A stretch of DNA of 41,619 bases, taken from contig JANMXV010000010.1 of the NCBI GenBank assembly GCA_031381325.1, positions 1 to 41,619 on the forward strand, written 5' to 3'. The notes under the pieces were generated by a model. It was not told the origin of the DNA, did no database searches, and was given only the letters and a program-made list of their open reading frames with translations. Shown piece after piece: positions 4,703 to 23,168 of the stretch; position 1 is the first letter of the stretch, and the number at the start of each line of letters is the position of its first letter. Origin of the DNA: Betaproteobacteria bacterium (GTDB lineage: Bacteria > Pseudomonadota > Gammaproteobacteria > Burkholderiales > SG8-41). The position numbers were made by a program, and so were the translations under genes.

Positions 4703-6543
4703 GATGGATTATTGCTTTGATGATGGCTGTCACGCTGACAGGATGTGGCGGCGGTGCTGGTGGCGACGGGGGGCCGACAGTGGCGGCGGCAGCGGCAGCG
4801 CCGGGTTGCAGCGGCGGTTGCTCCGCGGCGACGCCCACTGCACTGACGATTGCCGAGGTTAACCGGATACTGAGTCAGGCGGTGCAGGAGGCGCAGGCAC
4901 GCGGCGCGCTCGGCACGATCGCGGTGGTGGACCGTTCCGGCAATGTTCTGGCTGTGTTCCAAATGACAGGTGCGGCGGCTACGTTCACGATCTCCGGCGG
5001 GCGCGGCGTGGTGGGCGGACTCGAAGGCGTAAGTATCGTGCGGTCCGAGTACGCCGCCATCAGCAAAGCGATCACCGGCGCCTACCTGTCCTCTGAAGGC
5101 AACGCATTCTCAACGCGAACCGCAAGCCAGATCGTGCAGGAAAATTTCAATCCGGGCGAGATCGGGTCGCCGGGCGGACCGTTGTTCGGCGTGCAGTTTT
5201 CTTCGCTCTCGTGTTCCGATGTCGTCGCGACCGGCGTTACGCCGGGGCCCAAGCCCTCCCCGCTGGGTCTCGCGGCGGATGCCGGTGGTTTGCCGCTCTA
5301 CAAGAACGGCATTGTGGTGGGCGGCATCGGTGTGATCGCAGATGGACTGTACGGCCTCGACCTCAACGTTGGCAATATTGATCAGGATGCGGATGAACTG
5401 ATCGCGGTCGCCGCTGCGCGCGGGTTCGATGCGCCGGCCAATCGTCGCGCCGACCGCATCACTGCCGATGGGCGGACATTCCGCTACGTAGACTCGGAAG
5501 CCATCCTATCGAATCCCGCGGCGGCGCCGGCTGTTCCAGGTTCGGGTGCATTGATTACCGTCCCCGCCTACAAGCCGGTGGCGGCGGTGACTGCCGGCGT
5601 GGCGTTCAGCACGGCCGCATCCGGTTTTCGCGCCGATACCACCACCGCGGCGTTTGCGGGTCTGAATGCCTATGTGCTTGACAACGGGGCAGGTGTCAAC
5701 CGCTTTCCGCCCATTGCCGGTACCGATACTTTTCTGACGGCAGCGGAAGTCACGCGCATACTCGCCGAGGCAATAAAAATCGCGAATCGTGCGCGCGCGC
5801 AGATTCGCCAGCCATTGGGAACGCCGGCGCAGGTGACCATTTCGGTGGTGGATACCAATGCCGCAATCCTTGGGGTGATCCGCACCCCGGATGCCCCGGT
5901 ATTCGGCACGGATGTCGCAGTACAGAAAGCGCGATCCGCATTACTTTTTTCGAAGGCGAATACGGCTGCCGCGTTGAATGCGCTCGGCGCGCCTGTTAGC
6001 GGTTATGTGACCAACATGCAGGCACTGATAGGCGGCGCCTTGACCAACGGTGTGGCCTACAGCAATCGTGCGGTCGGCAATCTCGCGCGCCCTTTTCTGC
6101 CTGACGGCATCAACGGCAGCGGACCCGGCCCGTTGTCGAAGCCTTTTGCGCAATGGAGCCCGTTTGCGGACGGTCTGCAACTGGACTTGGTGCAGGCGAA
6201 AATCGTTGGCAATATAGTTGCAGGAACCAACACCGGCCCTTGTAACCCGATTCCGGCGGTTGCCAACGGTATTCAGATATTTCCCGGCAGCGTGCCGATT
6301 TTCCGCGGTGCTCAACTGGTAGGTGCGATTGGTATTTCAGGCGATGGCATCGATCAGGATGACATGGTTGCCTTTCTCGGGCTTGCGAACGCCGGCATTG
6401 CGCTGGGCACCGGCATCGCGAACGCGCCGGCTTCGCAGCGCGCTGATCTTATTACGGTGCCTGGCGGACAATTGCGTTACGTGAACTGTCCGGTTGCTCC
6501 ATTTCTTGATACCACTGCGACGAATGTTTGCAATGGAATATAA
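4699..6543 (+). CDS. Lipoprotein with two GlcG/HbpS-type heme-binding domains
   Basis: Signal peptide II MRWIIALMMAVTLTG-C. Twice-repeated family motifs: IAVVDRSG...AISKA...GGLPLYKNGIVVGGIGV and ISVVDTNA...AVQKA...PGSVPIFRGAQLVGAIGISG. ATG overlaps the upstream stop (ATGA). Confidence 0.82.
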   Translation: MRWIIALMMAVTLTGCGGGAGGDGGPTVAAAAAAPGCSGGCSAATPTALTIAEVNRILSQAVQEAQARGALGTIAVVDRSGNVLAVFQMTGAAATFTISGGRGVVGGLEGVSIVRSEYAAISKAITGAYLSSEGNAFSTRTASQIVQENFNPGEIGSPGGPLFGVQFSSLSCSDVVATGVTPGPKPSPLGLAADAGGLPLYKNGIVVGGIGVIADGLYGLDLNVGNIDQDADELIAVAAARGFDAPANRRADRITADGRTFRYVDSEAILSNPAAAPAVPGSGALITVPAYKPVAAVTAGVAFSTAASGFRADTTTAAFAGLNAYVLDNGAGVNRFPPIAGTDTFLTAAEVTRILAEAIKIANRARAQIRQPLGTPAQVTISVVDTNAAILGVIRTPDAPVFGTDVAVQKARSALLFSKANTAAALNALGAPVSGYVTNMQALIGGALTNGVAYSNRAVGNLARPFLPDGINGSGPGPLSKPFAQWSPFADGLQLDLVQAKIVGNIVAGTNTGPCNPIPAVANGIQIFPGSVPIFRGAQLVGAIGISGDGIDQDDMVAFLGLANAGIALGTGIANAPASQRADLITVPGGQLRYVNCPVAPFLDTTATNVCNGI

Positions 6544-6544
6544 G

Positions 6545-8749: not shown

Positions 8750-11700
8750 TGAGAATCCTGGCCGTAATTTTGCTGCTGTTTGCTGCTTCGATCGTCAGCT
8801 TGGCGAACTCACCTTCACCCTCTACGGAAGAGCCGGAAAGTAGCCCTGCTGCGCCAGAGAAGCAGACGCAGGCCGACGCCGATAGAAAATCGATGGGCTG
8901 CGTCACCTGTCATACCGCATCGGATCGTCACACGATGCATGCCAATCCGGCCGTAGTGCTTGGCTGTACCGATTGTCATGGCGGCAATGCAACGGTGGAA
9001 AAATTGGCTGGCTCAGAGTACGGTAGTAAGGACGAACAGGCCAACAAGGCCTATTTGGCTGCCATGAGCAAAGCGCACGTGATGCCGCGTTTTCCCATGG
9101 ACTGGAAAACACCCGCGTCGGCGAATCCAGAAGGTTCGTATACGCTGCTCAATCGCGAAAGCCCTGCGTTTGTACGATTCGTCAATCCGTCCGACTATCG
9201 AGTCGCGCGCGAGGCCTGCGGGGCCTGCCACCTTCCAGTGATTCAGGCTGCGGAGCGCAGCCTGATGTCGACCGGAGCGATGTTGTGGAACGGCGCCTCG
9301 TACAACAACGGAATTCTGGATGACAAACGGGGTGTGCTCGGCGAGGCCTATACCCGAACGGGCGAGCCGGCCACTATAAAGAATCCAGTCAAGCCGGACG
9401 ATTGGCTCACGCACAAGGGAATACTCCCGCAATTGTTCCCCTTGCCGGCTTGGGAAACGGTTCCGCCGGGAGACATATTTCGCGTGTTCGAGCGCGGTGG
9501 CCGGGTGATCAGCAGTCAGTTTCCGGAAGTGGGCCTGCCCAACAGCAGCGGCAAGCTGCAAGTGCTGGATGAACCAGGCCGCCCCGATATCAAGCAATCC
9601 AATCGCGGGCCTGGTACGGGCGGGCGTATTGCGGTTCCCGTCATCAACATTACCAAGACCCGCCTGAACGATCCGGTTATGTGGTTCCTCGGCACCAACG
9701 ACCAGCCGGGAGACTATCGTTCGTCGGGTTGCGCGGGGTGCCATGTAATCTATGCCAATGATCGCGATCCTGCGCGTTCCGGGCCCTATGCGAAATACGG
9801 TAACGACGGTAAAACGATCACTGCGGATCCGACCATACCGAAAGACAAACCCGGGCATCCGCTAAAACACGAATTCACGCGTTCAATACCGTCTTCGCAG
9901 TGCATGATCTGCCACATGCACCAACCGAATATATTCGTCAACAGTTTTTACGGCTTTACGATGTGGGACTACGAGTCCGATGCCCCCTCGATGTGGCCGG
10001 TAAAGCAACGCTATCCGACGGACGAGGAGCGCCGCAAAATATTGGAGCGCAATCCAGAGGCGGCGGCAGTGCGCGGGAAGTGGGGCGATGCGGAATTTCT
10101 GAAGGAGGTCTCCAAGCTCAACCCGACACTCAAGGATACGCAGTTTGCCGACTATCATGGTCACGGCTGGAATTTCCGCGCCATCTTCAAACGGGATCGC
10201 AAAGGCACCCTGCTCGATAAGGATGGCAATCCGGTGTCTGACAACGATCCGGACAAATTTAATCCGAAAAACCCGAAAAAGGCTGTGCATCTCACGTCGA
10301 TTCATCTGGACGTCGGCATGCATTGTTCAGATTGCCATTTCGCCCAGGACTCCCACGGCAACGGGCATATCTATGGCGAGGTGGCTGCTGCAATTGAAAT
10401 AGAGTGCGCGGATTGTCACGGAACGGCGGGGCGTTACCCGACGCTTTTCACCTCCGGCCCTGCCGCACGACCGGGCGGCACCGACATGAGCCTGATGCGC
10501 ACGCCCGACGGCCGGAAGCGCTTTGAGTGGAAAGACGGCAAGCTATTCCAGCGCTCCGTGATGTTTCCCGACAAGGAGTGGGAGATGTCGCTGGTGAAGG
10601 ATTCGGTAAATCCAAAGCATCCGCGCTACAACGCCAAATCCGCGCGCGCCAAGCTGGTTGCGAAAGGCGACTTTGATAACTACGCGCAACGCTGGGGACT
10701 CGGCGTCCCGGAGAACAATCGCGCGCATGGCGATGACAAGATGACTTGCCAGACTTGTCACACCTCATGGACCACCAGTTGCTCCGGATGTCACTTGCCC
10801 ATCGAGGCCAACGAAAAGACCGAACGCCACCATTATGAAGGCGGATTCACGCGCAATTACGCCACCTACAATCCGCAAGTGGTACGCGACGACATGTTCC
10901 ACCTTGGCCGTCATGGTCCGGTAAAGGGTGGCAAGATTACGCCGATACGTTCCTCCTCGGCGCTGGTGCTGTCTTCCACCAACGCCAATCGCGAGAAAAT
11001 TTACATTCAGCAGCCGCCCACCGCGGCGAGCGGATTCTCGAGCCAGGCATTTGCGCCGCATTATCCGCATACCGAGCGCAAAACCGAAACCAAGACCTGT
11101 TCCGATTGTCATGTATCTGCCGACAATGATAACAACGCCATCATGGGGCAATTGCTGTTGCACGGCACCGGCTATATCGGGCTGCTCGGTTACAACGCAT
11201 GGGTGGGCGAGGAAAAACATATTGAAGCGGTGCAGGTGACGGAGTGGGAGGAGCCGCAAGCCGTGATAGGCAGTTATCTTCACCGCTACGCCTACCCCGA
11301 CTGGTATGCCGCACATCTCAAAGTCAGTCGCAAGTTGTCTGAGGCGCACGATCATACGACTGCGGGACGCGCTGCCTGCTTGCAACTACGGGGTGAATAC
11401 CTTTATGTGGCGGAAGGGCCTGGCGGCATGCGCGTCTACGACGTTGCTTCGATTGCAAACAAGGGCGTATCCCAGCGCATCATTTCCGCACCGTTTTCGG
11501 CGCTTGGTCAAAATACGCATATCCCGAGCAAGAATGCGACCTGTGTCGTGTTGCCTACTACCCAGCCGATTGCGCCGCTAAAGAATCAGGGCGACAAGAT
11601 GCGTATCGTCAACCAGGAGCAGCCGTTTCACCCAATCTACAACTATGCATTGATTACGGATGCAGAGGAGGGGCTGATTTTGGTGGACGTGAATACGCTG

Positions 11701-12516
11701 CAAGATGGCGATCCGCGCAACAACTTTCTCAAGCGTGCGCTGACCTGGGATGGGAATGGGGTACTGAAAGGCGCACGGCACATTACGATGGGCGGCTCGT
11801 ATGTTTACATTACCGCGAACGCAGGGGTTGTTATCGTCAATCTCAAAAGTCCTCTCAAACCCGTGGTTGCGGCAGTGATTCCGCTCAAGGGTGCGCGCTC
11901 GACTGCGCTGCAGTTTCGTTATCTGGCTGTTACCGACGACACGGGATTTCGCATGATCAACGTCACTATCCCGGAGCGGGCAACACTCGTGGAGTCCGCA
12001 TTTGTGCCACTCGCCGACGCCAATCGCATTCACCTTGCGCGCACTTACGCTTACGTAGCCGCGGGCAAGGAAGGGCTCGTGATCGTCGATATCGAAAAAC
12101 CGGAAAAGCCGCGGGTCTACATGAAGTTCACGGCGGACGGCACGCTCAATGACGTGCGCGACGTGACTGTCGCTTCGACGAATGCGTCTGCTTTCGCCTA
12201 TGTTGCCGACGGCAGCAACGGACTCAAAGTTATCCAACTTACGGCGCCAGACACGCAGCCAAAATTTTATGGTTTTAGTCCCGATCCCAAACCACAGGTG
12301 ATTGCGTGGCGTAAAACACGAACGCCGGCGTTGTCGCTGTCGCGCTCACTCGAACGTGATCGCGGAGTCGATGAAACCGGCGGGCAAGTTGCCGTGTTTG
12401 GACGCATCGGCTCGCGGCCGCTTAATCTTGAGGAGCAACGCAAAATGTACCTCAAGCCCGATGGTACGCCATGGACAGTACGAGACAACCCTGAATCTCA
12501 TCAGGTAAAGCCATGA
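8749..12516 (+). CDS. Large secreted decaheme cytochrome c with a C-terminal LVIVD-repeat beta-propeller
   Basis: Sec signal; ten CxxCH (CVTCH, CTDCH, CGACH, CAGCH, CMICH, CSDCH, CADCH, CQTCH, CSGCH, CSDCH); about 7 LVIVD-type blades (YLYVAEGPGGMRVYDV, YAYVAAGKEGLVIVDI, FAYVADGSNGLKVI and others). TGATG coupling to the barrel gene. Confidence 0.88.
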   Translation: MRILAVILLLFAASIVSLANSPSPSTEEPESSPAAPEKQTQADADRKSMGCVTCHTASDRHTMHANPAVVLGCTDCHGGNATVEKLAGSEYGSKDEQANKAYLAAMSKAHVMPRFPMDWKTPASANPEGSYTLLNRESPAFVRFVNPSDYRVAREACGACHLPVIQAAERSLMSTGAMLWNGASYNNGILDDKRGVLGEAYTRTGEPATIKNPVKPDDWLTHKGILPQLFPLPAWETVPPGDIFRVFERGGRVISSQFPEVGLPNSSGKLQVLDEPGRPDIKQSNRGPGTGGRIAVPVINITKTRLNDPVMWFLGTNDQPGDYRSSGCAGCHVIYANDRDPARSGPYAKYGNDGKTITADPTIPKDKPGHPLKHEFTRSIPSSQCMICHMHQPNIFVNSFYGFTMWDYESDAPSMWPVKQRYPTDEERRKILERNPEAAAVRGKWGDAEFLKEVSKLNPTLKDTQFADYHGHGWNFRAIFKRDRKGTLLDKDGNPVSDNDPDKFNPKNPKKAVHLTSIHLDVGMHCSDCHFAQDSHGNGHIYGEVAAAIEIECADCHGTAGRYPTLFTSGPAARPGGTDMSLMRTPDGRKRFEWKDGKLFQRSVMFPDKEWEMSLVKDSVNPKHPRYNAKSARAKLVAKGDFDNYAQRWGLGVPENNRAHGDDKMTCQTCHTSWTTSCSGCHLPIEANEKTERHHYEGGFTRNYATYNPQVVRDDMFHLGRHGPVKGGKITPIRSSSALVLSSTNANREKIYIQQPPTAASGFSSQAFAPHYPHTERKTETKTCSDCHVSADNDNNAIMGQLLLHGTGYIGLLGYNAWVGEEKHIEAVQVTEWEEPQAVIGSYLHRYAYPDWYAAHLKVSRKLSEAHDHTTAGRAACLQLRGEYLYVAEGPGGMRVYDVASIANKGVSQRIISAPFSALGQNTHIPSKNATCVVLPTTQPIAPLKNQGDKMRIVNQEQPFHPIYNYALITDAEEGLILVDVNTLQDGDPRNNFLKRALTWDGNGVLKGARHITMGGSYVYITANAGVVIVNLKSPLKPVVAAVIPLKGARSTALQFRYLAVTDDTGFRMINVTIPERATLVESAFVPLADANRIHLARTYAYVAAGKEGLVIVDIEKPEKPRVYMKFTADGTLNDVRDVTVASTNASAFAYVADGSNGLKVIQLTAPDTQPKFYGFSPDPKPQVIAWRKTRTPALSLSRSLERDRGVDETGGQVAVFGRIGSRPLNLEEQRKMYLKPDGTPWTVRDNPESHQVKP

Positions 12517-13841
12517 CAACACTGTATAAATTGCTGATGATTGTTGCCATTGCCGGCCTGTTACAGGCCGCAGCCGCCCATAGCGCAGCGCTGTTGCCGC
12601 AGTACGCACACGACAAGACGCTCGGTGTAGGCAGTTGCGCCAGCAGCTTGTGTCACGGCGCCATAGAAACCTGGAGGGATTCCAATGTGTTGCAGAACGA
12701 ATATGTGACATGGTCACGCTCGGACAAGCACGCTCGGGCCTATGCGGTGCTGCTGAACGACAAGTCAAAAGAGATCGCAAAAAGACTGGCATTACCCAAG
12801 CCAGCGCATGAGAGCGACCTGTGCCTTGATTGCCATACGCACAATCCCAAACCGGCGCAGCGTACTCAAGGCTTCCAGATCGCCGACGGTGTTGCCTGCG
12901 AAGCATGCCACGGGCCTGCGGAGCGTTGGGTCCGGAGTCACGTCGAGACCGGCGTGACGCACGCGAACAACGTGGCGCGCGGCCTGTATCCGACCGATGA
13001 CGACGTGGCGCGCGCGCGCTTGTGTTTGTCTTGCCATTTGGGCACTAAGGACAAATTTGTTACCCACAAAATCATGGCGGCAGGGCACCCGCGCATGAGT
13101 TTTGAGCTGGATACGTTCACACAAATTGCGCCTGCACATTTCAGAATTGATGCAGATTGGCAGCGGCGTAAGGGCAACTGGAATGACGTGCGCGCTTGGG
13201 CAATCGGTCAAGCGGTTGCGGCTCAGGAACTGTTGGCACTCTTGCAAGGCCCGCGCGGGCGTGACGGACTTTTTCCTGAGCTGGTGCTGTTCGATTGCCA
13301 TTCATGCCATCACCCCATGGCCGACAAGCGTAATACAGCGGCGCGGGTCGGCGCGGGGCCGGGATTTGTTCGCCTGAACGACGCAAACCTGCTCATGTTG
13401 CGGCAGATAGTGCGCCGTGTGGTTCCGGCAGAAGCGGCGGCGTTCGCACAACAGGTCGCGCAACTGCACAAGGCCGTTGCCAGCGGTAGCGACGCCCTCG
13501 CGCAGGCGCGCGTTGTCGAACACCTGATTGCAGCAATGATTTCCAAAATTAGCGCCCATGGATTTTCCGGTGAAGATTTAAAGGCAATTATGCTTGGACT
13601 GATTGACGACGGCCTTGCCGGTCAATACAGTGACTATCAAGGCGCCGAACAGGCGGTAATGGCCGTGCAGAGCGTCGCCGACCTCATGGGCAGGCACAAG
13701 CTGTTGCGCACGCAGCCGCTAAAGCCCATGATTAAACGATTGCTGGCAGTGGTTTCCCAAGATGAGAAATATCAACCGGCTGCATTAAGCAAGGTCTTGC
13801 GTGAACTTAAGACGAGCGTCGAGACGGGGACGAACAAATGA
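12513..13841 (+). CDS. Periplasmic c554-family-like multiheme cytochrome c (5 heme motifs)
   Basis: Sec signal ending AHS-A; CASSLCH (CX4CH), CLDCH, GVACEACHGP, CLSCH, CHSCH; helical C-terminal half. Confidence 0.85.
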   Translation: MTTLYKLLMIVAIAGLLQAAAAHSAALLPQYAHDKTLGVGSCASSLCHGAIETWRDSNVLQNEYVTWSRSDKHARAYAVLLNDKSKEIAKRLALPKPAHESDLCLDCHTHNPKPAQRTQGFQIADGVACEACHGPAERWVRSHVETGVTHANNVARGLYPTDDDVARARLCLSCHLGTKDKFVTHKIMAAGHPRMSFELDTFTQIAPAHFRIDADWQRRKGNWNDVRAWAIGQAVAAQELLALLQGPRGRDGLFPELVLFDCHSCHHPMADKRNTAARVGAGPGFVRLNDANLLMLRQIVRRVVPAEAAAFAQQVAQLHKAVASGSDALAQARVVEHLIAAMISKISAHGFSGEDLKAIMLGLIDDGLAGQYSDYQGAEQAVMAVQSVADLMGRHKLLRTQPLKPMIKRLLAVVSQDEKYQPAALSKVLRELKTSVETGTNK

Positions 13842-16240
13842 GCGATAGCGTCCGTATAGCCATTATCGGATCAGGGCCGAGCGGCCTGTCCTGCGCAGCG
13901 CACGCGGCGGAACTCAATGTGCCGCACGTGTTGCTGGAGGCAGAGGAACATCCTTCGCATACCATATTCCGCTATCAGAAGGGCAAGCACGTGATGGCGG
14001 AGCCGGGGATTCTGCCGTTGCGCAGCCCCATAACGTTTGCGGCCGGAAAACGCGAAGCAATCCTCAACAAGTGGGATGAAGAGGTCGCGAAATACAAAGT
14101 TGATGTTCGATACCGTTCGGCGGTGACTTCAATCGCCGGCGCCAAAGGCGCTTTCGAGATCAAGACGGCCGCAGGGGATACCTACAACGCGGAACACGTG
14201 GTACTGTGCATCGGCTTGCAGGGCAATATCCGCAAGCTTGGTGTGCCCGGCGAAGACCTTGAGCGCGTGCAGTACCAGCTCGATGATCCGGACGAATACA
14301 ACGGCGAAGTGATTGTCGTGGTCGGCGCCGGGGATGCCGGCATCGAGAACGCGCTTGCGCTTGCCGAAAACAACCGCGTTATTCTGATCAACCGCGTGGA
14401 CGAATTCCCGCGTGTCAAACAGGGCAACATCGACCTGGTGACTGCTGCAATCCACGACGACAAGATGGAGTGCCGCTACAGCACCTCCGCGATCAAGGTG
14501 GAAGCCGTCGAAGCAGAAAGCAAGCCCTTGTTTTTCACCGCGCAGACGCCGCGGGGTGTCGAGAAGATCGCGTGTGATCGCGTCATCGCAAGGCTGGGCG
14601 CGATCCCACCCCGCAAGCTGGTTGAAAATTTTGGCGTGCAGTTTCCAAACCAGACCATGGAAGCGGTGCCGCAGGTGTCGGCAACCTATGAATCAAACGT
14701 GCCTGGTCTTCACGTCATTGGCGCACTGGGCGGCTACCCGCTCATCAAGCAGGCGATGAACCAGGGCTACGAGGTGGTGGAATACATACTCGGCAATGCA
14801 GTGGAACCCGCCGACGAATCCCTGTTGAAGGCCAAGTTCAAAAATTTCAAGCGTGCGAAAAATGTGTCTGAAGCGCTTGCGCTGGTGCAAGCCAATGTGC
14901 CGCTGTTCAAAGATCTGACCACGCTGCAGTTGCGCGAGTTCATGCTGGACAGCGAGGTGCTCGCACCCAGGAACGATGAAGTGATCTTCAAGAAAGATGA
15001 CTATACCAATTCGTTTTTCTCGGTCGTGGATGGCGAAGTTACGGTCGAAGTGCCCGGCGAGGACGGTAAGCGGCAGACCGTTACTCTCAAACGCGGCCAG
15101 TTTTTCGGGGAATTGGGTTTGCTGTCCGGACGGCGACGCTCGAACACGGTGCGCGCGGGCGCAAATTGCGTGCTGATTGAAACGCCGCGACGTTCGATGC
15201 TGAAGTTGCTCGCGAGCATCGAGTCGGTGCGGCGCCAGATCGACGAAACCTCTCTGCGCCGCGCGGTGCGTGTGCATATCGCGCCGTTCGTGTCGGAAGC
15301 AGACATGGACGAAATGCTCAAGGGCGCAACGATCAAGAGTTTTGCCGCGGGGCAGACGCTGTTCAAGGAAGGCGACGAGGCGGACGGATTGCATCTCATC
15401 CGCCGCGGCTCGGTTACCATTTCGCGCACGCTTGGGGGCAAGGAAGTCATAGTGGCATATATCGCGGCCGGCAACTATGTCGGCGAAATGGCGCTGTTGT
15501 CTTCCAATGACCGCCGCTCGGCAACGGTGCGCGCTGCGGTCAATTGCGAAACCATTCTGCTGTCGGCCAAGGCCTTCAATGAAGTGATCAGCCGCAATCC
15601 GGCACTGCGTAGCGGCATGCAGACACGCGTCCGGGAGCGGCTGTCAAAAGACGCGCAGCGCGAAGCGGAACCCGACAGCGGATCCGGGGGGCTGATCAAC
15701 TTCCTGATCGGGCAGGGGCTCGGCGAGAGCACGGACGTTTTGCTGATAGATGAGAGCCTATGCGTGCGCTGTGACAATTGCGAGAAAGCATGCGCCGATG
15801 TGCATGACGGGACGTCGCGTCTGGATCGCGAGGCGGGTCCGACCTTTGCAAACATACATATTCCGACTTCATGCCGGCACTGCGAGAATCCGCATTGCAT
15901 GAAAGATTGTCCGCCGGATGCGATTCACCGGAATCCCAGCGGCGAAGTTTTCATCAGCAACACCTGTATCGGCTGCGGCAACTGCGAACGCAATTGCCCG
16001 TACGGCGTGATTCAGATGTCGCAGGTGAATCCCAAGCGGCGCGCGCCCAGCCTTTTGGCATGGCTGACGACTGGATTTACCACCGAACCCGGACGTGAAG
16101 CGCACTACCACAATGAGGAAATGGGCAAGAAGGCGGTGAAGTGTGATATGTGTAAAGACTTGTCGGGCGGCCCGGCGTGCGTGCGCGCCTGTCCTACCGG
16201 CGCTGCAATTCGCATCAATCCCGAAAAATTTATTGCCTAG
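13838..16240 (+). CDS. TrxR/YpdA-like FAD/NAD(P)H oxidoreductase fused to two cNMP-binding domains and a DmsB/NrfC-like 4x[4Fe-4S] domain
   Basis: GSGPSG (FAD), GAGDAG (NAD(P)H), YESNVPGLHVIG; cNMP cassettes FFGELGLLSGRRRSNTV and YVGEMALLSSNDRRSATV; Cys motifs CVRCDNCEKAC, CRHCENPHCMKDCP, CIGCGNCERNCP, CDMC...PACVRACP. No signal peptide. Confidence 0.9.
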   Translation: MSDSVRIAIIGSGPSGLSCAAHAAELNVPHVLLEAEEHPSHTIFRYQKGKHVMAEPGILPLRSPITFAAGKREAILNKWDEEVAKYKVDVRYRSAVTSIAGAKGAFEIKTAAGDTYNAEHVVLCIGLQGNIRKLGVPGEDLERVQYQLDDPDEYNGEVIVVVGAGDAGIENALALAENNRVILINRVDEFPRVKQGNIDLVTAAIHDDKMECRYSTSAIKVEAVEAESKPLFFTAQTPRGVEKIACDRVIARLGAIPPRKLVENFGVQFPNQTMEAVPQVSATYESNVPGLHVIGALGGYPLIKQAMNQGYEVVEYILGNAVEPADESLLKAKFKNFKRAKNVSEALALVQANVPLFKDLTTLQLREFMLDSEVLAPRNDEVIFKKDDYTNSFFSVVDGEVTVEVPGEDGKRQTVTLKRGQFFGELGLLSGRRRSNTVRAGANCVLIETPRRSMLKLLASIESVRRQIDETSLRRAVRVHIAPFVSEADMDEMLKGATIKSFAAGQTLFKEGDEADGLHLIRRGSVTISRTLGGKEVIVAYIAAGNYVGEMALLSSNDRRSATVRAAVNCETILLSAKAFNEVISRNPALRSGMQTRVRERLSKDAQREAEPDSGSGGLINFLIGQGLGESTDVLLIDESLCVRCDNCEKACADVHDGTSRLDREAGPTFANIHIPTSCRHCENPHCMKDCPPDAIHRNPSGEVFISNTCIGCGNCERNCPYGVIQMSQVNPKRRAPSLLAWLTTGFTTEPGREAHYHNEEMGKKAVKCDMCKDLSGGPACVRACPTGAAIRINPEKFIA

Positions 16241-16282
16241 AGGGCATGCCTTAGCAGGGTTATTGGTCTAAAAGTTATTATA

Positions 16283-16295
16283 AATCAAATGCTTA
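16283..16295 (+). promoter_or_regulatory. IHF-consensus site upstream of the sensor kinase
   Basis: AATCAA-ATGC-TTA matches WATCAANNNNTTR exactly, within an AT-rich intergenic region. Confidence 0.45.
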
Positions 16296-16365
16296 CGTTC
16301 AACAGTGCAACTGAATATTCACCCTGTTCGTAGTGCCACGCAAAATAAATTAAACAGGGGACATC

Positions 16366-18660
16366 ATGGGGTTGCGGCTCAAGTTTAATTTGGTGTTATT
16401 GCTGGTATTCGCAGTAGGGCTGGGCGTCACCGGCTATATCTCGTACGACCTTCTGCACCGCAATGCGCGTGACGAAGTGATGCGCAACGCGGGAATCATG
16501 ATGGAAGCAGCGCTGTCGATGCGCAGCTATACCAGCAAGCAGATCGGGCCGCTCATTCCGTACAGCGCAGACGCGTTTCATCCGCAAACGGTGCCCGCCT
16601 ATTCGGCTACGGAGATTATGGGTTCTCTGCGCGAGAAATACGCCGACTATTCGTATAAAGAGGCAACGTTGAATCCCACCAATCCGCTACACAAGGCGGT
16701 GGCGTGGGAAGCCGAAATCGTGAACGCGTTTCGCAGCGCGGCGGAGCGCAGCGAATTGAGCGGGGTGCGCGATACGCCGGCAGGCCGTTTTTTGTATGTC
16801 GCGCGACCGTTGCAGATCACGGACAAGGCGTGCCTCGTGTGCCACGATACGGCAGCCAGGGCGCCCCCGGCGATGGTGAAAATCTACGGCCCGAACAACG
16901 GTTTTGGCTGGCAGCACATGGAGGTTATCGGCGCCCAGATCGTGCTGGTGCCGATGTCACTTCCCGTCAAGAATGCCAATCACGCGTTCTATACGTTCAT
17001 GGTTTCGCTGTCGCTGGTATTTCTGCTGTTGTTCGCTATCCTCAATGTCATGATGAACGTGCTCATAGTGCGGCCGATCATGCGCATGTCCGAAGCGGCG
17101 GCGCGGGTGGGTAAAGGCGATCTCAAACATCGTATCGATATACACACCGGTGATGAACTCGAGGCATTTGCGGCGGAGTTTAACCGCACCGCGGCACAAC
17201 TGATGGAATCGCACGCGGGACTTGAGTCGAAGGTCGAGGCGCGCACGCGCGAGCTAGCGAGTGCGAACGCTGGGCTGACCGAGGCGTTGGGGCAGCAGAC
17301 GGCAACGGCGGAAGTGCTCAAGATCATCAGCCGCTCAACGTTCGACCTGCAGCCGGTACTGCAAACGCTGATGGACAGCGCTGCAAGATTGTGCCGCGCC
17401 AAACGATGCGTATTGTTTCAGCAGGACGGTGAAGTTTATCGAGCATCAGTCACCTACAACACGACACCCGAGCTGCGGCACTACCTGGAATCGAATCCCA
17501 TCACGCCCGGTCGCGGCACCGTGAGCGGCCGCGCGGCACTCGAGGGACGAGTGGTACACGTGCATGATGTACGCACTGATGCCGAGTACCAGTGGGGCGA
17601 AGGCGCCCGCTTGGGCGACTACCGTACCGTGCTCAGCGTTCCCTTGCTGCGTGAAGGCGTGCCGATCGGCGTCATCGTCCTGACCCGTGACATCGTAGAG
17701 CCTTTCAGCGACCGGGAAATCGACCTGGTCAACACCTTCGCCGACCAGGCCGTAATCGCCATCGAAAACGTGCGGCTGCTCCACGAGATCCAGGACAAGA
17801 GCCGGCAACTCGAACTCGCCAGCCTGCACAAATCGCAGTTTCTCGCGAACATGTCGCACGAATTGCGCACGCCGTTAAATGCCATTATCGGCTACAGCGA
17901 AATGCTGCAGGAAGACGCGGCTGAACTCCAGGCAGAGCAGTTCGTGGCCGACCTGCAGAAAATCCAAGCCTCCGGACAGCACCTGCTGGAGCTCATTAAC
18001 GCCGTGCTGGACCTGTCCAAGATCGAGGCCGGCAAAATGGAACTGTATCTGGAATCGTTCAACGTCGCGAGCGTAGTGGCGGGCGTCACCGACGTTATCA
18101 AGCCGCTGGCGCAGAAAAAGTCGAACCGTCTGGTGATCGAATGCGCGGAGAACGCAGGCATCATGCATGCCGATTTGACGAAGGTGCGCCAGGCGCTGTT
18201 CAACCTGCTGAGCAACGCCTGCAAGTTCACTGAAAACGGAACCGTGACGATGAAAGTCGAACGGCAAACGTACGACGGGCACGAGGGGCACAACAGCGGC
18301 GACTGGATCGTCGTCAGCGTACACGATACCGGCATCGGCATGACACCCGAGCAGATAGGGCGGCTGTTCCAGGCCTTCTCCCAGGCGGATGCCTCGACCA
18401 CGCGCGAGTTCGGCGGCACGGGACTGGGCTTGGCGCTGAGCCGCCACCTGTGCCAGATGATGGGTGGAGACATCACGGTACAGAGCGAACCCGGCAGCGG
18501 TTCGACCTTCACGCTGCGCCTGCCGGCTACAGTCAAGGACGCTGCGCTCAAGGGGGCGGAGGCCAGGGCCGACGTGGCGGTGCTGCCACTGCCCGGCGCG
18601 CAAGGTGCGCTAAAATCCGGGAACGGGCGCAATGGCGTGCGATACCGGTTGTGGTGGTGA
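16366..18660 (+). CDS. Membrane sensor histidine kinase: periplasmic DUF3365/Tll0287-like heme-c domain, HAMP, GAF, HisKA, HATPase
   Basis: Two TMs flanking YKEATLNPTNP...YVARPL...CLVCH...NGFGW; HAMP (GDELEAFAAEFN); GAF (FADQAVIAIENVRL); SHELRTPLN; NLLSNACKFT, DTGIGM, GGTGLGL. Confidence 0.93.
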   Translation: MGLRLKFNLVLLLVFAVGLGVTGYISYDLLHRNARDEVMRNAGIMMEAALSMRSYTSKQIGPLIPYSADAFHPQTVPAYSATEIMGSLREKYADYSYKEATLNPTNPLHKAVAWEAEIVNAFRSAAERSELSGVRDTPAGRFLYVARPLQITDKACLVCHDTAARAPPAMVKIYGPNNGFGWQHMEVIGAQIVLVPMSLPVKNANHAFYTFMVSLSLVFLLLFAILNVMMNVLIVRPIMRMSEAAARVGKGDLKHRIDIHTGDELEAFAAEFNRTAAQLMESHAGLESKVEARTRELASANAGLTEALGQQTATAEVLKIISRSTFDLQPVLQTLMDSAARLCRAKRCVLFQQDGEVYRASVTYNTTPELRHYLESNPITPGRGTVSGRAALEGRVVHVHDVRTDAEYQWGEGARLGDYRTVLSVPLLREGVPIGVIVLTRDIVEPFSDREIDLVNTFADQAVIAIENVRLLHEIQDKSRQLELASLHKSQFLANMSHELRTPLNAIIGYSEMLQEDAAELQAEQFVADLQKIQASGQHLLELINAVLDLSKIEAGKMELYLESFNVASVVAGVTDVIKPLAQKKSNRLVIECAENAGIMHADLTKVRQALFNLLSNACKFTENGTVTMKVERQTYDGHEGHNSGDWIVVSVHDTGIGMTPEQIGRLFQAFSQADASTTREFGGTGLGLALSRHLCQMMGGDITVQSEPGSGSTFTLRLPATVKDAALKGAEARADVAVLPLPGAQGALKSGNGRNGVRYRLWW

Positions 18661-18680
18661 CGGCGAAAGGTATGATTTGA
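18609..18680 (+). pseudogene. Out-of-frame remnant of a receiver domain overlapping the end of the kinase
   Basis: An alternative frame reads KIRERAQWRAIPVVVVTAKGMI*, the alpha3-beta4 segment (IPVVVVTAK) typical of C-terminal REC domains of hybrid kinases. Confidence 0.65.
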
Positions 18681-18695
18681 TTTGTAGGAATGACG

Positions 18696-19073
18696 ATGGC
18701 AAAAATACTGTTGGTTGAAGACAATGAGATGAATCGCGACATGCTCTCGCGCCGGCTAATGCGCAAGGGCTACGAGGTGCTCATCGCGGTCGATGGCGAG
18801 GAAGGCGTGAGAATGGCCCGGTCGTCGAAACCGGACCTGATTTTGATGGACATGAGTTTGCCGGTGATCGACGGGTGGGAGGCGACCCGGCAGATCAAAG
18901 CCATGGTTGAATTGCAGACGATCGGGATCATTGCGCTTACCGCTCACGCGATGGTACAGGACAAGGACAAGGCACTTGCTGCGGGCTGCGATGACTTCGA
19001 CACCAAGCCGGTCGATATCGAGCGGCTCACGCAAAAAATCGAAGCCTTGCTCACAAAAGGATCTGCGACGTGA
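18696..19073 (+). CDS. Single-domain response regulator (DivK/CheY-like)
   Basis: ILLVEDN, DLILMDMSLPVIDG, IIALTAHAM, DDFDTKP; AGGA RBS before ATG 18696. Confidence 0.93.
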   Translation: MAKILLVEDNEMNRDMLSRRLMRKGYEVLIAVDGEEGVRMARSSKPDLILMDMSLPVIDGWEATRQIKAMVELQTIGIIALTAHAMVQDKDKALAAGCDDFDTKPVDIERLTQKIEALLTKGSAT

Positions 19074-20620
19074 CGCCCGATCACCTTGCGCAATTACGTC
19101 ACGAACTGCGTACGCCGCTGAATCACATCATTGGCTATGGCGAAATGCTGGTCGAGGACGTCGAGGGCGGTCCCCATGCGGTGCTCGCGCCGCAGCTGCG
19201 CAGCATACTGGATGATGCACGACGTCTGGTCGAACTCATCAACAGTTTTCTCTCTCCGTCGAACATCGAAGCAGGATCGGTAGACGGCGAGCACCTGCCG
19301 CCGGAACTGGCCGCGCCGCTGGATCGCATCATCAGCACGGCGAAAACCATCGGTGCGCAAGTGGTTGACAGCAAGGAGATGCTGCCGGATGTGGAGCGCA
19401 TGTCCGCCGCAGCGGAACACCTGCGAGATCTTCTCCAGCATGGCAGGACAGCGCGCGCGCCCCCGATTGTCGCGCCGGTTCCCATGCCTGTGAATACGGT
19501 TACCGTTCGAGAAGGCGCCGGTCGTGCCGGGCATAGCTCCATCCTGGTGGTTGACGACAACGAGAATAATCGCGAAATGCTGTCGCGCCGGCTGGCGCGC
19601 GAAGGGTACCGGCAAGTCACGCTTGCCGTGGACGGCCGGCAGGCGCTAGAACTTCTGGCTTCGCAAAAATTTGATCTCGTGTTACTGGATATCATGATGC
19701 CGGAAGTCGATGGCTACCAGGTGCTGGAGACCCTGAAGGCTGACCCGAAGCGCCGCGATATTCCCGTCATCATGATCTCGGCGCTGGACGAAATGGCGAG
19801 CGTGATTCGCTGCATCGAACTCGGCGCCGAAGATTATCTGCCCAAGCCCTTTGATGCGACGCTGTTGCGCGCACGAGTGGGGGCGAGCCTTGAGAAAAAA
19901 GCGCTGCGTGACGAAGTGCATGACTGGAACAAGAAACTCGAAGCGCGCGTGCAGGAGCAGGTCGCGCAACTTGACCGCCTGGGGCGGCTGAAAGGTTTTT
20001 TTTCACCGCAGCTCGCGGAGTCAATTGTCAACGGCGGTGGCGAAGACTTGTTGAAAACGCATCGCCGCGAAGTGGTGGTCGTTTTCCTGGACTTGCGCGG
20101 TTTTACCGCGTTCACCGACAGGTCCGAGCCCGAGGAGGTGATGGGGGTGCTGGGTGAATATCACCGCGTGATGGGACAATTGGTGGTGGCCCATGAAGGG
20201 ACACTCGAGCGCTTTGCCGGCGACGGTTTGATGATTTTTTTCAACGACCCGATCAAGCTTGAGAATCCAACCGTAAACGCAGTGAAGATGTCGCTCGAAA
20301 TGCAGGAGAAATTCGCGCCATTGCGCACCGCGTGGAAGAAGCGCGGCTACGATCTTGATCTCGGCATTGGCATCGCGCAAGGCTACGCGACGCTTGGTGC
20401 GATTGGATTTGAGGGGCGGTGGGATTACGCCTGCATCGGCAGCGTTACCAATCTCGCGGCGCGGCTGTGCGGCGAGGCCAAAGGCGGGCAGATACTTACG
20501 AATCAGAAGACACTGTCCCATATTGAAGAGGACGCGCAGGTCGAGCCGCTGGGCGAGGCCATGATGAAAGGCATCGCGCAACCGGTGCCTGTGTTCAACG
20601 TCGTCGGTCTCAAGCATTGA
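19070..20620 (+). CDS. HisKA(DHp)-receiver-class III nucleotidyl cyclase fusion
   Basis: LRHELRTPLNHIIGY; REC ILVVDDN...LLDIMMP...ISA...KPF; cyclase FLDLRGFT, ERFAGDG, IGSVTNLAARL. GTGA overlap with the upstream stop. Confidence 0.9.
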   Translation: MTPDHLAQLRHELRTPLNHIIGYGEMLVEDVEGGPHAVLAPQLRSILDDARRLVELINSFLSPSNIEAGSVDGEHLPPELAAPLDRIISTAKTIGAQVVDSKEMLPDVERMSAAAEHLRDLLQHGRTARAPPIVAPVPMPVNTVTVREGAGRAGHSSILVVDDNENNREMLSRRLAREGYRQVTLAVDGRQALELLASQKFDLVLLDIMMPEVDGYQVLETLKADPKRRDIPVIMISALDEMASVIRCIELGAEDYLPKPFDATLLRARVGASLEKKALRDEVHDWNKKLEARVQEQVAQLDRLGRLKGFFSPQLAESIVNGGGEDLLKTHRREVVVVFLDLRGFTAFTDRSEPEEVMGVLGEYHRVMGQLVVAHEGTLERFAGDGLMIFFNDPIKLENPTVNAVKMSLEMQEKFAPLRTAWKKRGYDLDLGIGIAQGYATLGAIGFEGRWDYACIGSVTNLAARLCGEAKGGQILTNQKTLSHIEEDAQVEPLGEAMMKGIAQPVPVFNVVGLKH

Positions 20621-20670
20621 GCCACCATCGCGAAACGCGATTTGACTGGCTATTCGATTATAAATCCCGG

Positions 20671-22572
20671 CTATTCATCTTCCGCAGCCCGGCGTACGCG
20701 GTAGAGCGTGGAGGCGCCGTAACCCTTTGCGAGGGTGACTTTGCCCAGGTAGTCGCAGGTGAAAGGGTGGTTGCCGTCGACCGTGAGCAGTGCGGCAGTC
20801 TGCTCGGTGATGTATACGCACCCCGCAGCCGTCACCGGCTCAATACGAGCCGCTCGCGTGACATGTGATCCAAAGTGGTTGATCCGCTGTATCACCGGAT
20901 CGAAGGCCTGAAAAACGGGACCGCTATGGATCGCGATGCGCGCAATCAGCGGCGGCAATCCCAAGGCGCGCCAGTCGGTGCTTGCAATGGCGTCGCGCAT
21001 GCGCAAAGCGAACTCGACTCCCGGCGCGGCCTCGTCGTACACGATAAACAGCCCATCACCCCAGGTGTTGCTTGAAACCGGCGCGACGCTTGATGTCTTG
21101 ATTTCGTGGGCAACGCGACCGAGAAAATCAAAAAAGAACGCGGGCGCACTCTCTTCGGTAAGCTTGCTAAAGCCCACCACATCTGCGAAAAGCATGGTTT
21201 TTATCTGACGTTTGCCCCACGAGCGGGCTTTTGATTCGACGGCGCTTGTGGTGATGAGCGGTGCGGCGGTGATGGTTGGCGCATGAGGCGCTTTATTCCG
21301 CAAATCGCTTATATCGATCGTGCGCTCGTCGAGCTCCAAACTTTGCCACGCAAGCACGTTTGACCAGGTGCCGCCCTTTAACGGATTCGATTCGGGTTCT
21401 GCCACGGCAAGCAATAGCGCGCGAGTCTCCAGTTGCTGCGCGCGCAGCAGCACCAGTCCCTGCATCAGCTTCGCGGCGAAATCAAACAACACATCATCGC
21501 CCAGGTAGCCTTCGTCCACGCATACGTTGACGGTTGCGGCTCGCGACAGCGCCCGGTCAAACCGTGCAACCCATTCGTCCCCGGCAAATGCCACACTGGT
21601 GCGTTTGAAATCCTCGCGACCGAATGGCAGCACTACGTTAACTTCAATGCCCCGTGCAAGCGCCTGCTCGATGAACAGGATGTCTGCACCACAGGCCGCC
21701 GAGCAGTATGCAAAGCCCGCGTCGGCATCGTCAAGCGCTTTGCCGAGTGCCGCTTCCACGGCCGGCGCGAGATGCGGGGGAAACCGTGGCGCAGGCCGTC
21801 CCGCGCGATCAATCATGTGCCCGGTAAACAGGACGACGCATGGCACGTGCAGTATGCCGAGCATCTCTTGCGCGAGCGGCGACTGCGGCACAAGCAGACG
21901 CAATTGACGCCGCATGCTGGCGAGGTCGCCGTAGCGCCTGCCGGCTTGCTCACGAGCTTTGGCATACCAATGCAATGCGCCGTCACGGTCGCCCAGCAGT
22001 AGCGATGCTTCACCCAAAGTGGCATGCAGCCAATGGTCCGCGTTTGCCGTATCAAGGCAGCGCGTTCTCACCGCGCTCGCAATGTGTCGTGCATCCGCCG
22101 CATCTCCGGTCAGCAGACTCAGCGTCGCCGCATTGATGCCGGGGAAAGAATCCGCAGTCTGAACCCAGGCCTGCCGGTAATAGGCGCGCGCCTGTTCAGC
22201 GGCTTGCAGTCCTTGTGCACCGTTCCCCACCGCTGCCATGCGATCCTTGGCGATACGCCCGGCAAGACTGAGCGCTTCGGTTCGCAGGTTGGATTCGAGA
22301 TCGGTGCGAGCCAGCAGGCGTTCCACGTGCTTCATGGCATAGCCGCGGGCGCCACTGCGGGCGCATGCAAGAGCCAGGAAATACAATATCGTCGCGTTGT
22401 CCGGAAATGCCGTCAGCGCCTCACCCAGAATATCCGACGCCAATGCATACTGGCCCAATGCAATGGCTTGCCGGCCCAGTTCAACATAGTGCCTGGGATC
22501 AGCGCCCCAGGTATTGCGGTCGCGTGCTTCCCATGCCCGCAACAATGGTTCAAGGTCTGTCAGTGTGCTCAT
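20671..22572 (-). CDS. TPR (MAP3K TRAF-binding/TPR-S-like) + SLOG-like + class III nucleotidyl cyclase protein
   Basis: TPR-like EALSLAGRIAKD, FPGINAATL, WLHATLGEA; SLOG-like LFTGHMID...ACGADILF...VVLPF; cyclase MLFADVVGFS, NTWGDG, HSGPV, RAARIEP. Start set at ATG 22572 (AGGA upstream). Confidence 0.82.
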   Translation of the reverse strand: MSTLTDLEPLLRAWEARDRNTWGADPRHYVELGRQAIALGQYALASDILGEALTAFPDNATILYFLALACARSGARGYAMKHVERLLARTDLESNLRTEALSLAGRIAKDRMAAVGNGAQGLQAAEQARAYYRQAWVQTADSFPGINAATLSLLTGDAADARHIASAVRTRCLDTANADHWLHATLGEASLLLGDRDGALHWYAKAREQAGRRYGDLASMRRQLRLLVPQSPLAQEMLGILHVPCVVLFTGHMIDRAGRPAPRFPPHLAPAVEAALGKALDDADAGFAYCSAACGADILFIEQALARGIEVNVVLPFGREDFKRTSVAFAGDEWVARFDRALSRAATVNVCVDEGYLGDDVLFDFAAKLMQGLVLLRAQQLETRALLLAVAEPESNPLKGGTWSNVLAWQSLELDERTIDISDLRNKAPHAPTITAAPLITTSAVESKARSWGKRQIKTMLFADVVGFSKLTEESAPAFFFDFLGRVAHEIKTSSVAPVSSNTWGDGLFIVYDEAAPGVEFALRMRDAIASTDWRALGLPPLIARIAIHSGPVFQAFDPVIQRINHFGSHVTRAARIEPVTAAGCVYITEQTAALLTVDGNHPFTCDYLGKVTLAKGYGASTLYRVRRAAEDE

Positions 22573-22643
22573 AGCGTATCCTAGTATAATGAGTTTGTAA
22601 TTCAGGTATTGCTGGGCTGTCAAATGTTTCTCTTGGATTTAAT

Positions 22644-23102
22644 ATGATTGTTTATGACCTGGAATGTGAACACAGCCACCGCTTCGAAGGCTGGTTCGGC
22701 TCCGCTGGCGATTTTGACACGCAGCTTGCGGACAAGCTGTTGTGCTGCCCTATGTGCAATAGCGGCAACGTGGTGCGCCGTCCCAGCGCCGCATACGTCA
22801 ATACGGGGGCTGTTGAAAAGCCGCAGCGTGAAAAGCAAAAGTCTTCCAGCGTAAGCGTGCCTCAGCAATATGCGAACGTGTCGCCGGAAATGGTCGCTAA
22901 AATCATTGAACACATCGTCAAGACCACCGAAGACGTCGGTAATCAGTTTCCCGAGGAGGCGCGCAAGATTCACTATAACGAAGCGCCCGAACGGCAAATA
23001 CGGGGCACCGCCACGGCGAGAGACGTTGAGTCATTGCGCGACGAGGGTATCGAGGTGGTCTCGCTGCCGGTGCCGCCTCATCTGGCGGCAAAAACGCACT
23101 GA
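22644..23102 (+). CDS. DUF1178 family zinc-ribbon protein
   Basis: MIVYDLECEHSHRFEGWFGS, CPMC, EDVGNQFPEEARKIHY...IRG signature. Confidence 0.9.
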   Translation: MIVYDLECEHSHRFEGWFGSAGDFDTQLADKLLCCPMCNSGNVVRRPSAAYVNTGAVEKPQREKQKSSSVSVPQQYANVSPEMVAKIIEHIVKTTEDVGNQFPEEARKIHYNEAPERQIRGTATARDVESLRDEGIEVVSLPVPPHLAAKTH

Positions 23103-23112
23103 GTGCATTAAT

Positions 23113-23145
23113 ACGCAACTGAGACGCAACTGAGACGCAACTGAG
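23113..23145. repeat. Perfect tandem repeat, 3 x ACGCAACTGAG (11 bp)
   Basis: Units at 23113, 23124 and 23135, in the short gap before the CoA ligase. Confidence 0.95.
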
Positions 23146-23168
23146 GCGCGGTTCAGTCAAGTTTTAAA

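Follow-up and report, generated by a model that had tools for sequence, protein, structure and literature searches.

The stretch of DNA analysed here (the window) comprises 41,619 nucleotides (contig JANMXV010000010.1, positions 1 to 41,619 of the forward strand) of a Betaproteobacteria bacterium of the order Burkholderiales, whose genome (GCA_031381325.1) is a fragmented metagenome-assembled genome (MAG) of 887 contigs with 6% contamination. It contains an operon with multiheme cytochrome genes that ends with g07, an oxidoreductase carrying cyclic nucleotide monophosphate (cNMP)-binding domains, and directly after it four signalling genes, g08 to g11 (Table 1). Domain assignments are based on a listing of open reading frames (ORFs) and on Pfam and NCBIfam scans of the window's proteins. 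A preliminary description, made from the DNA sequence alone, had proposed a closed loop in which a heme-sensor kinase (g08), a receiver (g09) and two cyclases (g10 and g11) set a local cNMP level that controls g07. The domains it named for g07 to g11 were all found where it had placed them (Pfam, translations), with matches far stronger than chance would give, the series of CxxCH-sensor kinase, receiver, receiver-cyclase and second cyclase after g07 is real, with independent contigs bridging its junctions, and no DNA-binding domain was detected by Pfam in any of the five proteins. It had missed two features of these genes: g11 lies on the minus strand, and g10 has, at its N-terminus, a HisKA/DHp domain unaccompanied by an ATPase domain.

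Table 1. Features of the g07 locus (positions in the window; domains from Pfam; CxxCH, number of such motifs).
Feature	Position	Strand	Description
Seven-gene operon	1955-16240		membrane protein, FHA-decaheme, HbpS-like, SH3, LVIVD-decaheme, c554-like tetraheme, cNMP-flavo-FeS protein
Operon genes upstream of g07	2918..13841	+	g02-g06
g02			FHA domain, 10 CxxCH
g03			HbpS-like
g04			SH3
g05			LVIVD repeat, 10 CxxCH
g06			c554-like, 4 CxxCH
g07	13838..16240	+	800 amino acids; Pyr_redox_2/3, two cNMP_binding stretches, C-terminal multi-cluster 4Fe-4S domain
Segment specific to this genome among those sampled	16241..22626		6.4 kb, exactly g08-g11
g07-g08 spacer	16241..16365		125 bp, AT-rich
g08	16366..18660	+	764 amino acids; Tll0287-like/DUF3365, HAMP, GAF, HisKA, HATPase_c
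g09	18690..19073	+	127 amino acids; receiver only; proposed first Asp of relay
g10	19070..20620	+	516 amino acids; DHp (HisKA), receiver, class III cyclase (Guanylate_cyc)
g11	20671..22623	-	TPR-S, middle region, divergent class III cyclase (Guanylate_cyc); convergent with g10
DUF1178 gene	22644..23102	+	synteny with three same-genus relatives restarts here

The g07 protein and its operon

The operon carries 24 CxxCH motifs in total, and the start of g07 overlaps the stop of g06 by 4 bases. Homologues of g07 are present in 10 of the 60 relatives that were searched (within the genus, in 7 of 20 genomes), and g02 to g07 are syntenic in nine of the ten loci taken for comparison. For a wider set, one genome per species was scanned and the best 80 of 555 g07 relatives (60-87% identical) were retained with flanks of up to 10 kb, drawn from Burkholderiales, Usitatibacter, Casimicrobiaceae, Lysobacter and Arenimonas MAGs. 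The gene order of the operon is kept across these best 80 loci, in Burkholderiales, Usitatibacter, Lysobacter and related MAGs alike, with g06 immediately upstream of g07 in 75 of the 76 that have upstream DNA (the exception is L067; L057 is rearranged). By these comparisons g07 is the last gene of a conserved operon. No study of a cNMP-flavoprotein fusion or of an FHA/LVIVD multiheme operon was found in the literature. The operon opens with an FHA (phosphothreonine-binding) cytochrome, and Ser/Thr phosphorylation may be another input to it.

The N-terminal part of g07 has the fold of a TrxR/YpdA flavoprotein using FAD and NAD(P)H, and the C-terminal part is a DmsB/HycB-like four-cluster ferredoxin domain. 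Because the NCBIfam scores fall far below the family cut-offs (61 bits against 343 for TRX_reduct, 116 against 340 for YpdA) and the translation contains no redox-active CxxC in residues 1-330, the N-terminal domain is classed as a TrxR-fold flavoprotein that belongs to neither the TrxR nor the YpdA family. Between these parts, the cNMP_binding match scores 138.5 bits, and a second scan likewise gives two matches. Both domains contain the Gly-Glu and Arg-Ser/Thr motif that marks ligand competence in the PF00027 cNMP-binding domain: the first phosphate-binding cassette reads F-G-E-L-G-L-L-S-G-R-R-R-S (G424, E425, R432-R434) and the second V-G-E-M-A-L-L...R-R-S-A-T (G549, E550, R560, A562, T563). 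Both cassettes (FGE...RRRS, GEMALL...RRSAT) are invariant in an alignment (A1) of four g07 sequences, in which G424, E425, R434 and the five named residues of the second cassette are individually listed as invariant. Since this invariance extends down to 54% identity, control by cNMP is probably a property of the operon wherever it occurs, with the nucleotide supplied by whichever cyclases the cell has.

In the mycobacterial cyclic AMP-dependent acetyltransferase Pat, an enzyme is gated by a fused cNMP-binding domain. Pat and g07 have in common a CRP/PKA-type cNMP domain whose fusion partner is an enzyme and not a DNA-binding domain, and the Gly-Glu and Arg residues are intact in g07, which gives a weak match to the NCBIfam model of Pat (NF058543). 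The two proteins differ in that the enzyme in g07 is a YpdA/TrxR-like flavoprotein plus a DmsB/HycB-like four-cluster ferredoxin domain, and in that g07 has two cNMP domains in tandem. Because g07 is conserved in the best 80 loci, across many species, gating of electron transfer by cNMP can be put to the test regardless of which cyclase makes the nucleotide.

Neighbours of g07 in homologous operons

Seven of the close loci have 4-7.5 kb of DNA past g07, and tblastn found g08, g09, g10 and g11 all absent from this downstream DNA in all seven. The ORFs at the position that were scanned with Pfam are unrelated genes: a small ORF (215-221 amino acids), an MBL-fold gene and DUF1178 in two relatives, a small ORF followed by an MFS-acyltransferase gene in two others, and ice-binding-like or Phe-tRNA synthetase genes in the rest. 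At the nucleotide level, homology detected by blastn ends at 16239/16240, the stop codon of g07, in all seven relatives, and restarts at 22627-22644 in three loci of the same genus (L012, L014, L015), where other genes fill the position (a small ORF of about 215 amino acids in two, then MBL-fold and DUF1178 genes); in the other four, nothing past g07 aligns. Flanking repeats were sought at the edges of the 6.4-kb segment thus delimited and none were found, and no transposase or tRNA was noticed among its ORFs. The tenth locus, from a different family (g07 homologue 52% identical), has an unrelated CHASE2-cyclase two genes off, within a CHAT/ShlB cluster.

Downstream DNA in the best 80 wider loci reaches at least 4 kb in 50, at least 5 kb in 46 and at least 8 kb in 40. 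These loci were screened with a cyclase hidden Markov model (HMM) built from the 11 cyclase domains of this genome, and with phmmer queries for the kinase core, the receiver, the DUF3365 sensor, the DHp part of g10 and the N-terminus of g11. As a control, the HMM picked up the CHASE2 cyclase of L021, which is unrelated, at 5e-56, and every receiver-cyclase in ten other loci. A cyclase was detected in one of the 80 (L071, a CHASE2-cyclase at a distance of 8 kb and on the other strand), a kinase core in one (L123, a PAS kinase) and a receiver in one (L119, a CheW-receiver), and the DUF3365 sensor, the g10 DHp part and the g11 N-terminus were each found in none. Among 79 downstream ORFs scanned with Pfam, most are unrelated genes, for example tRNA synthetases, malic enzyme, UvrA and secretion proteins. 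The combination of cNMP-oxidoreductase, kinase and cyclase does not recur, and cyclases and DUF3365 kinases are not enriched beside homologous operons, an outcome that the preliminary description had itself named as a refutation of its loop; the link that it drew from cyclase to cNMP-binding oxidoreductase is left without support from these neighbourhoods.

The adjacency can also be compared with chance. At about eight cyclases per 4.5 Mb, a rough estimate is that a cyclase would lie by chance within 10 kb of a given gene in 3-4% of genomes. A cyclase was observed within 10 kb of g07 in three of about 90 genomes (that of the window, L071 and L021), so that the observed frequency matches this rough estimate. 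Cyclases are plentiful in such genomes: this one gives 11 cyclase-domain and 17 cNMP-domain matches, and each of the five operon-bearing relatives that were checked carries 5-13 cyclase domains elsewhere.

Because the adjacency of g07 and g08 to g11 is unique to this genome, with a flank that differs in nearly every lineage, a dedicated loop to g07 lacks support. The preferred reading, to which a probability of about two-thirds is given on comparative grounds, is that an independent signalling cassette lies beside g07, two ordinary modules having come to stand side by side by chance. The first module would be g07, a cytoplasmic NAD(P)H flavo-FeS protein that responds to the cell-wide cNMP pool from cyclases encoded elsewhere; the second would be the self-contained cassette in the 16241-22626 segment, in variable DNA right after the operon. 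The product of the cassette may reach g07 as it may reach any other cNMP receptor in the cell.

Two distant g07-bearing genomes have a CHASE2-cyclase together with a CHAT or caspase-WD40 protein less than 10 kb from g07 (L021 1256-8920, L071 12458-22252); ShlB is additionally present in the L021 cluster, and the arrangement has the look of a separate CHASE2-cyclase/CHAT module that recurs. A cNMP phosphodiesterase was considered as a conserved partner of g07, given that a few relatives have MBL-fold genes after g07, one of which matches PDEase_II, and was ruled out, as homologues occur in only one and two of the 80 loci. Elsewhere in the genome of the window, on contig C803 (about 399-10843), a cyclase domain (9342-9875) adjoins an MBL-fold gene that is 46% identical to the PDEase_II-like gene of L053, with a cNMP-binding domain on the same contig; C803 may hold a separate module that makes and breaks cNMP.

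The signalling cassette

The sensor part of g08 belongs to the DUF3365 family (PF11845; residues 32-196 score 122.3 bits, the cut-off being 24.1). Its CXXCH motif, C156-L-V-C-H160, lies between two hydrophobic segments (about 8-27 and 208-236), after which the signalling module follows, and the topology deduced from this places the sensor domain in the periplasm. The kinase core is complete, with HisKA at 76.9 bits (SHELRTPLN) and HATPase_c at 106 bits over positions 2-110 of the 111 in the profile. Over residues 1-274, g08 shares 73% identity with a sCache_heme-HAMP protein of 290 amino acids encoded on contig C607 of its own genome, a typical CHH receptor followed there by a Pkinase (Ser/Thr protein kinase) gene (locus L128, 122-2503), and over residues 220-749 it shares 64% identity with a dCache-HAMP-GAF kinase. 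Because these two parts match different families, g08 is read from its sequence as a chimera of a CHH-type sensor and a dCache-GAF-type kinase core with a crossover in the HAMP region. The sensor part has matches in 77 of 401 genomes across the order, mostly in open frames of about 300 amino acids, and no full-length relative of g08 was found among the best 80 metagenome loci, where all matches begin at residue 174 or later. The protein is a clear case of modular sensor swapping, in which a CHH-type sCache_heme sensor has been grafted onto a GAF kinase.

An assembly or binning artefact would be in keeping with the 887 contigs and 6% contamination of the MAG as well as with a g08 whose sensor and core come from different families. 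However, Logan contigs from four runs of two studies span the g07/g08 junction (16161-17286, 15968-16838, 16024-16386), the crossover inside g08 near 17100 (16840-17765, 16858-17370, 16947-17410) and the passage from g11 to DUF1178 (20230-23142, 20050-22782, 21165-23142, of which the first two extend back into g10). These contigs have 0-8 mismatches, and the source sample may be among the runs. An artefact is accordingly considered very improbable.

In two preprints (bioRxiv 10.64898/2026.02.01.703092, 10.64898/2026.05.25.727664), DUF3365 is defined as sCache_heme, fusions to kinases (HisKA/HATPase_c) are among its frequent architectures, and a CHH receptor is paired with a Ser/Thr kinase, the Pseudomonas azotoformans representative of the pair binding nitric oxide (NO). 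The CHH receptor as described there and g08 share a periplasmic Cache fold with a c-heme motif (CXXCH), flanked by two membrane helices, and then a HAMP domain, at which the CHH receptor ends, whereas g08 runs on into GAF-HisKA-HATPase_c. The predicted output of g08 is a His-Asp relay to a cyclase and not a Ser/Thr kinase, and heme and NO binding by g08 are themselves predictions. Because the closest relative of the g08 sensor is a stand-alone sCache_heme-HAMP receptor of the type reported to bind NO, sensing of a ligand (NO) is, by analogy, a better reading of g08 than readout of the operon's own cytochromes. The preliminary description was right in placing the heme sensor domain in the periplasm; its suggestion that the sensor reads those cytochromes fits less well than an NO ligand.

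The three genes g08 to g10 are tightly packed (29 bp between g08 and g09, an overlap of 4 bp between g09 and g10). The acidic pocket, phospho-acceptor Asp, Thr/Ser and Lys of a receiver are intact in g09 (VEDN...LMDMSLP...LTAH...TKP), and g09 is 75% identical to the free receiver in a cassette of L036. The HisKA/DHp domain of g10 (residues 6-69, E 3.4e-13) aligns with the DHp domains of SrrB and RetS, and no HATPase_c match was found in g10 with Pfam. In an alignment (A3) of 18 full-length g10 homologues (57-84% identical), none of which has an ATPase domain, H11, R14, T15, N18 and the HELRTPLN box are invariant throughout, as are the receiver residues D162, D163, D207, S237 and K259. The layout of kinase, receiver and (DHp-)receiver-cyclase is found again in relatives and metagenomes, and in one g10 homologue (P0095) a g09-like receiver is fused ahead of the DHp-receiver-cyclase. 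In L036 a DHp-receiver module of the g10 type carries a SpoIIE phosphatase output. The architecture of HisKA, receiver and cyclase is present in about 36 of the best 120 protein-database matches to g10, the closest such proteins being P0001 (99% identical) and P0002-P0008 (72-84%), and an order-wide search with the DHp part of g10 gave matches in 7 of 401 genomes. Based on the invariant His11 on an ATPase-less DHp domain, the gene order and the fused form in P0095, a phosphorelay from the g08 His through the g09 Asp and g10 His11 to g10 Asp207 is likely, and the chain from sensor through phosphorelay to cyclase in the preliminary description is borne out to that extent by the packing, the recurring layout and the P0095 fusion.

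Multi-step phosphorelays with a DHp-type histidine phosphotransferase are known in Spo0F-Spo0B-Spo0A and CckA-ChpT-CtrA. The system of g08 to g10 would share with them a kinase His, a free receiver Asp, a second His on an ATPase-less, four-helix DHp-like domain and a terminal receiver Asp, and would differ in carrying the phosphotransferase domain as a fusion with the terminal response regulator and in having as output a class III cyclase (SpoIIE in L036) and not a DNA-binding domain; the relay on the g08-g10 side of this comparison is deduced from sequence. Dimerisation is a property of DHp domains, and class III cyclases work as dimers; this would suit a DHp domain of g10 that takes no part in phosphotransfer but serves as a dimerisation scaffold for the cyclase, or as a phosphatase that resets the receiver of g09 or g10, with g08 phosphorylating the receivers directly. 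Such a phosphatase would be consistent with the HExxT (HELRT) that g10 keeps, which is also the phosphatase motif of HisKA kinases, and the receiver-cyclases closest to g10 (84% and 79% identical) function without a DHp domain. However, the His is invariant in all 18 homologues, a free receiver always precedes the DHp domain in the cassettes seen, and in P0095 the receiver is fused to it, and a role outside phosphotransfer is therefore judged rather unlikely. The DHp - receiver - class III cyclase proteins form a widespread, unstudied family of response regulators with an invariant His and non-canonical specificity residues. Two DNA repeats connect the relay genes, one (17857-17917 and 19100-19160, 77% identical) between the H-boxes of g08 and g10 and the other (18705-18773 and 19541-19609, 80% identical) between the start of g09 and the start of the g10 receiver; they fit an origin of the g10 DHp-receiver by duplication of a kinase and receiver, or just strong constraint on the motifs.

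The catalytic set of g10 is complete, with metal-binding D341 and D385, the transition-state residue N461, and R465 invariant in the 18 homologues. Its best matches in the PDB are the class IIIb adenylate cyclase CyaB of Pseudomonas aeruginosa (3r5g, E 1.4e-32) and Cya2 (2w01, E 1.9e-26), which share both metal Asp residues, the transition-state Asn and the Arg. The substrate of these cyclases is defined by a pair of residues, Lys with Asp/Thr for ATP and Glu with Cys/Ser/Gly for GTP. In g10, Arg381 aligns with Lys in CyaB and Glu in Cya2, and Ala454 with Thr in CyaB and Gly in Cya2; within the g10 family the pair varies (R/H/A/N and A/G/T). Because R381/A454 fits neither the ATP nor the GTP pair, the product of g10 cannot be predicted from it, and g10 is filed, on these residues, as a class III cyclase of non-canonical specificity and as neither an adenylate nor a guanylate cyclase. 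It also differs from CyaB and Cya2 in its predicted regulation by DHp and receiver domains in place of their N-terminal domains.

The g11 gene starts with ATG at 22572, the end coordinate given in the preliminary description, or TTG at 22623. Compared with PDB structures, g11 keeps the metal-binding D481 and D523 and the Arg, R593 (numbering of the 650-amino-acid frame), has T589 at the position of the transition-state Asn and has N519/N582 as its specificity pair, so that its activity may be lowered or altered. The TPR-S-cyclase architecture is widespread across phyla. A reading of the cyclase and cNMP genes as a defence system was rejected: PADLOC gave only generic domain similarity (PycC and PycTIR models on cyclase/cNMP domains) and no match to g11.

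In the mechanism suggested by the domains and their conservation, the periplasmic c-heme Cache of g08 would bind a ligand, most likely NO, or sense redox state, and the signal would pass via HAMP and GAF to autophosphorylation of the g08 kinase. The phosphoryl group would be transferred to the g09 Asp, from g09 to His11 of the ATPase-less DHp of g10 and from there to Asp207 of the g10 receiver, which would activate the cyclase dimer. Convergently transcribed g11 would be a separate TPR-S cyclase with a weakened catalytic set.

Parts of this cassette occur elsewhere, away from g07. Of the two closest receiver-cyclases, one (84% identical to that part of g10) is encoded in G022, which lacks a g07 homologue, behind binding-protein genes and a dCache-GAF kinase; the other (79% identical) is encoded in G019, well inside a 220-kb contig, a long way from the G019 operon and with no kinase nearby. 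In several relatives the cassette consists of periplasmic binding proteins, a dCache-HAMP-GAF kinase with or without a fused receiver, a receiver and a receiver-cyclase, and further, paralogous cassettes lie on contigs C684 and C687 of this genome. Relatives of the g08 core were followed through the best 80 metagenome loci: 15 of these contain a cyclase and 7 a DHp-plus-cyclase frame, and DUF3365, g05, g06, g07 and g11 were found in none. Homologues of g11 (71-74% identical) are on other contigs with no other gene of the window nearby. In G009 the operon with g07 is intact, and the counterparts of g10 and g11 each have one in-frame TAG (G009:C11 52020-53104 and G009:C124 3853-5778).

A possible local circuit and other features of the window

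Several points weigh against the reading of two independent modules. The cNMP-related genes g07, g10 and g11 are packed into 9 kb here while their counterparts are on three different contigs in G009 and in G019, and selection for a local circuit would produce the same clustered picture. A periplasmic heme sensor beside a periplasmic multiheme operon is thematically coherent. Read-through transcription from g07 to g08 is possible, as the genes are on the same strand, 125 bp apart, with no predicted terminator. Non-conservation is compatible with a young, strain-specific coupling. The cyclase HMM and phmmer screens were home-made, Pfam was applied to 79 of the 146 listed downstream ORFs, mostly the first two per locus, and closer g10 relatives (P0002-P0008, 72-84% identical) are on short contigs outside the neighbourhood comparison.

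With respect to transcription, the spacer probably holds a promoter and ribosome-binding site of g08's own. A consensus scan predicted neither promoter nor terminator in the g07-g08 spacer and the g10-g11 interval, but as its counts equal those in shuffled sequence it is uninformative. A search of 13500-23400 against Rfam for riboswitches and other RNAs gave no match with E up to 0.1. Among the sequencing runs listed as containing this DNA, none was of RNA.

A strain-specific loop could have arisen after insertion of the cassette, in which periplasmic NO or redox state acts through g08, g09 and g10, and perhaps g11, on cNMP that gates g07 allosterically and thereby the flow of electrons between NAD(P)H and the multihemes. 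The tight adjacency on one strand, bridged by independent contigs, the intact cNMP cassettes of g07, the full set of catalytic residues in g10, the assembly here of three cNMP genes that are dispersed in G009 and G019, and the lack of a DNA-binding output in the block all suit such a loop. It is nevertheless improbable, given how rarely such neighbours accompany g07 in the close and wider loci and how the flank after g07 changes in almost every lineage, and given the number of cyclase and cNMP domains in a genome whose cNMPs diffuse. In addition, G009 retains an intact operon while its g10 and g11 counterparts carry in-frame stops, and the Arg/Ala pair of g10 gives no prediction of its product. 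The more elaborate version, in which a recent insertion has wired an NO/redox sensor via a four-step relay to an unusual cyclase as a local post-translational circuit on g07, without a transcription factor and with g11 as a second input, is judged slightly less probable again. If it were true, the circuit would throttle electron input to the 24-heme periplasmic system, and a loop of the proposed kind, in which a second messenger directly controls an enzyme of respiratory electron transfer, would be a rarity; adjacency in one genome should not serve as evidence for such control.

Beyond the cassette, 23103-25415 is a second insertion specific to the window in comparison with three same-genus relatives, located between the DUF1178 and enoyl-CoA hydratase (ECH) genes and carrying a gene for an acetyl-CoA synthetase (ADP-forming)-like protein (CoA_binding, Succ_CoA_lig, ATP-grasp_5). 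In the spacer after DUF1178, an 11-nucleotide unit (ACGCAACTGAG) is repeated three times in tandem (23113-23149). An ORF of 1588 amino acids (26413-31179) has no Pfam or NCBIfam match and encodes a protein of 31% Ala, 14% Glu, 11% Arg and 9% Gln that looks like a coiled coil by composition; it causes a strong AT-skew and a GC content of 65%, and its homologues (57-60% identical) come after the ECH gene in two relatives. At the other end of the window, two adjoining paralogues of the acetoacetate decarboxylase (ADC) family are encoded on the minus strand (252-1765).

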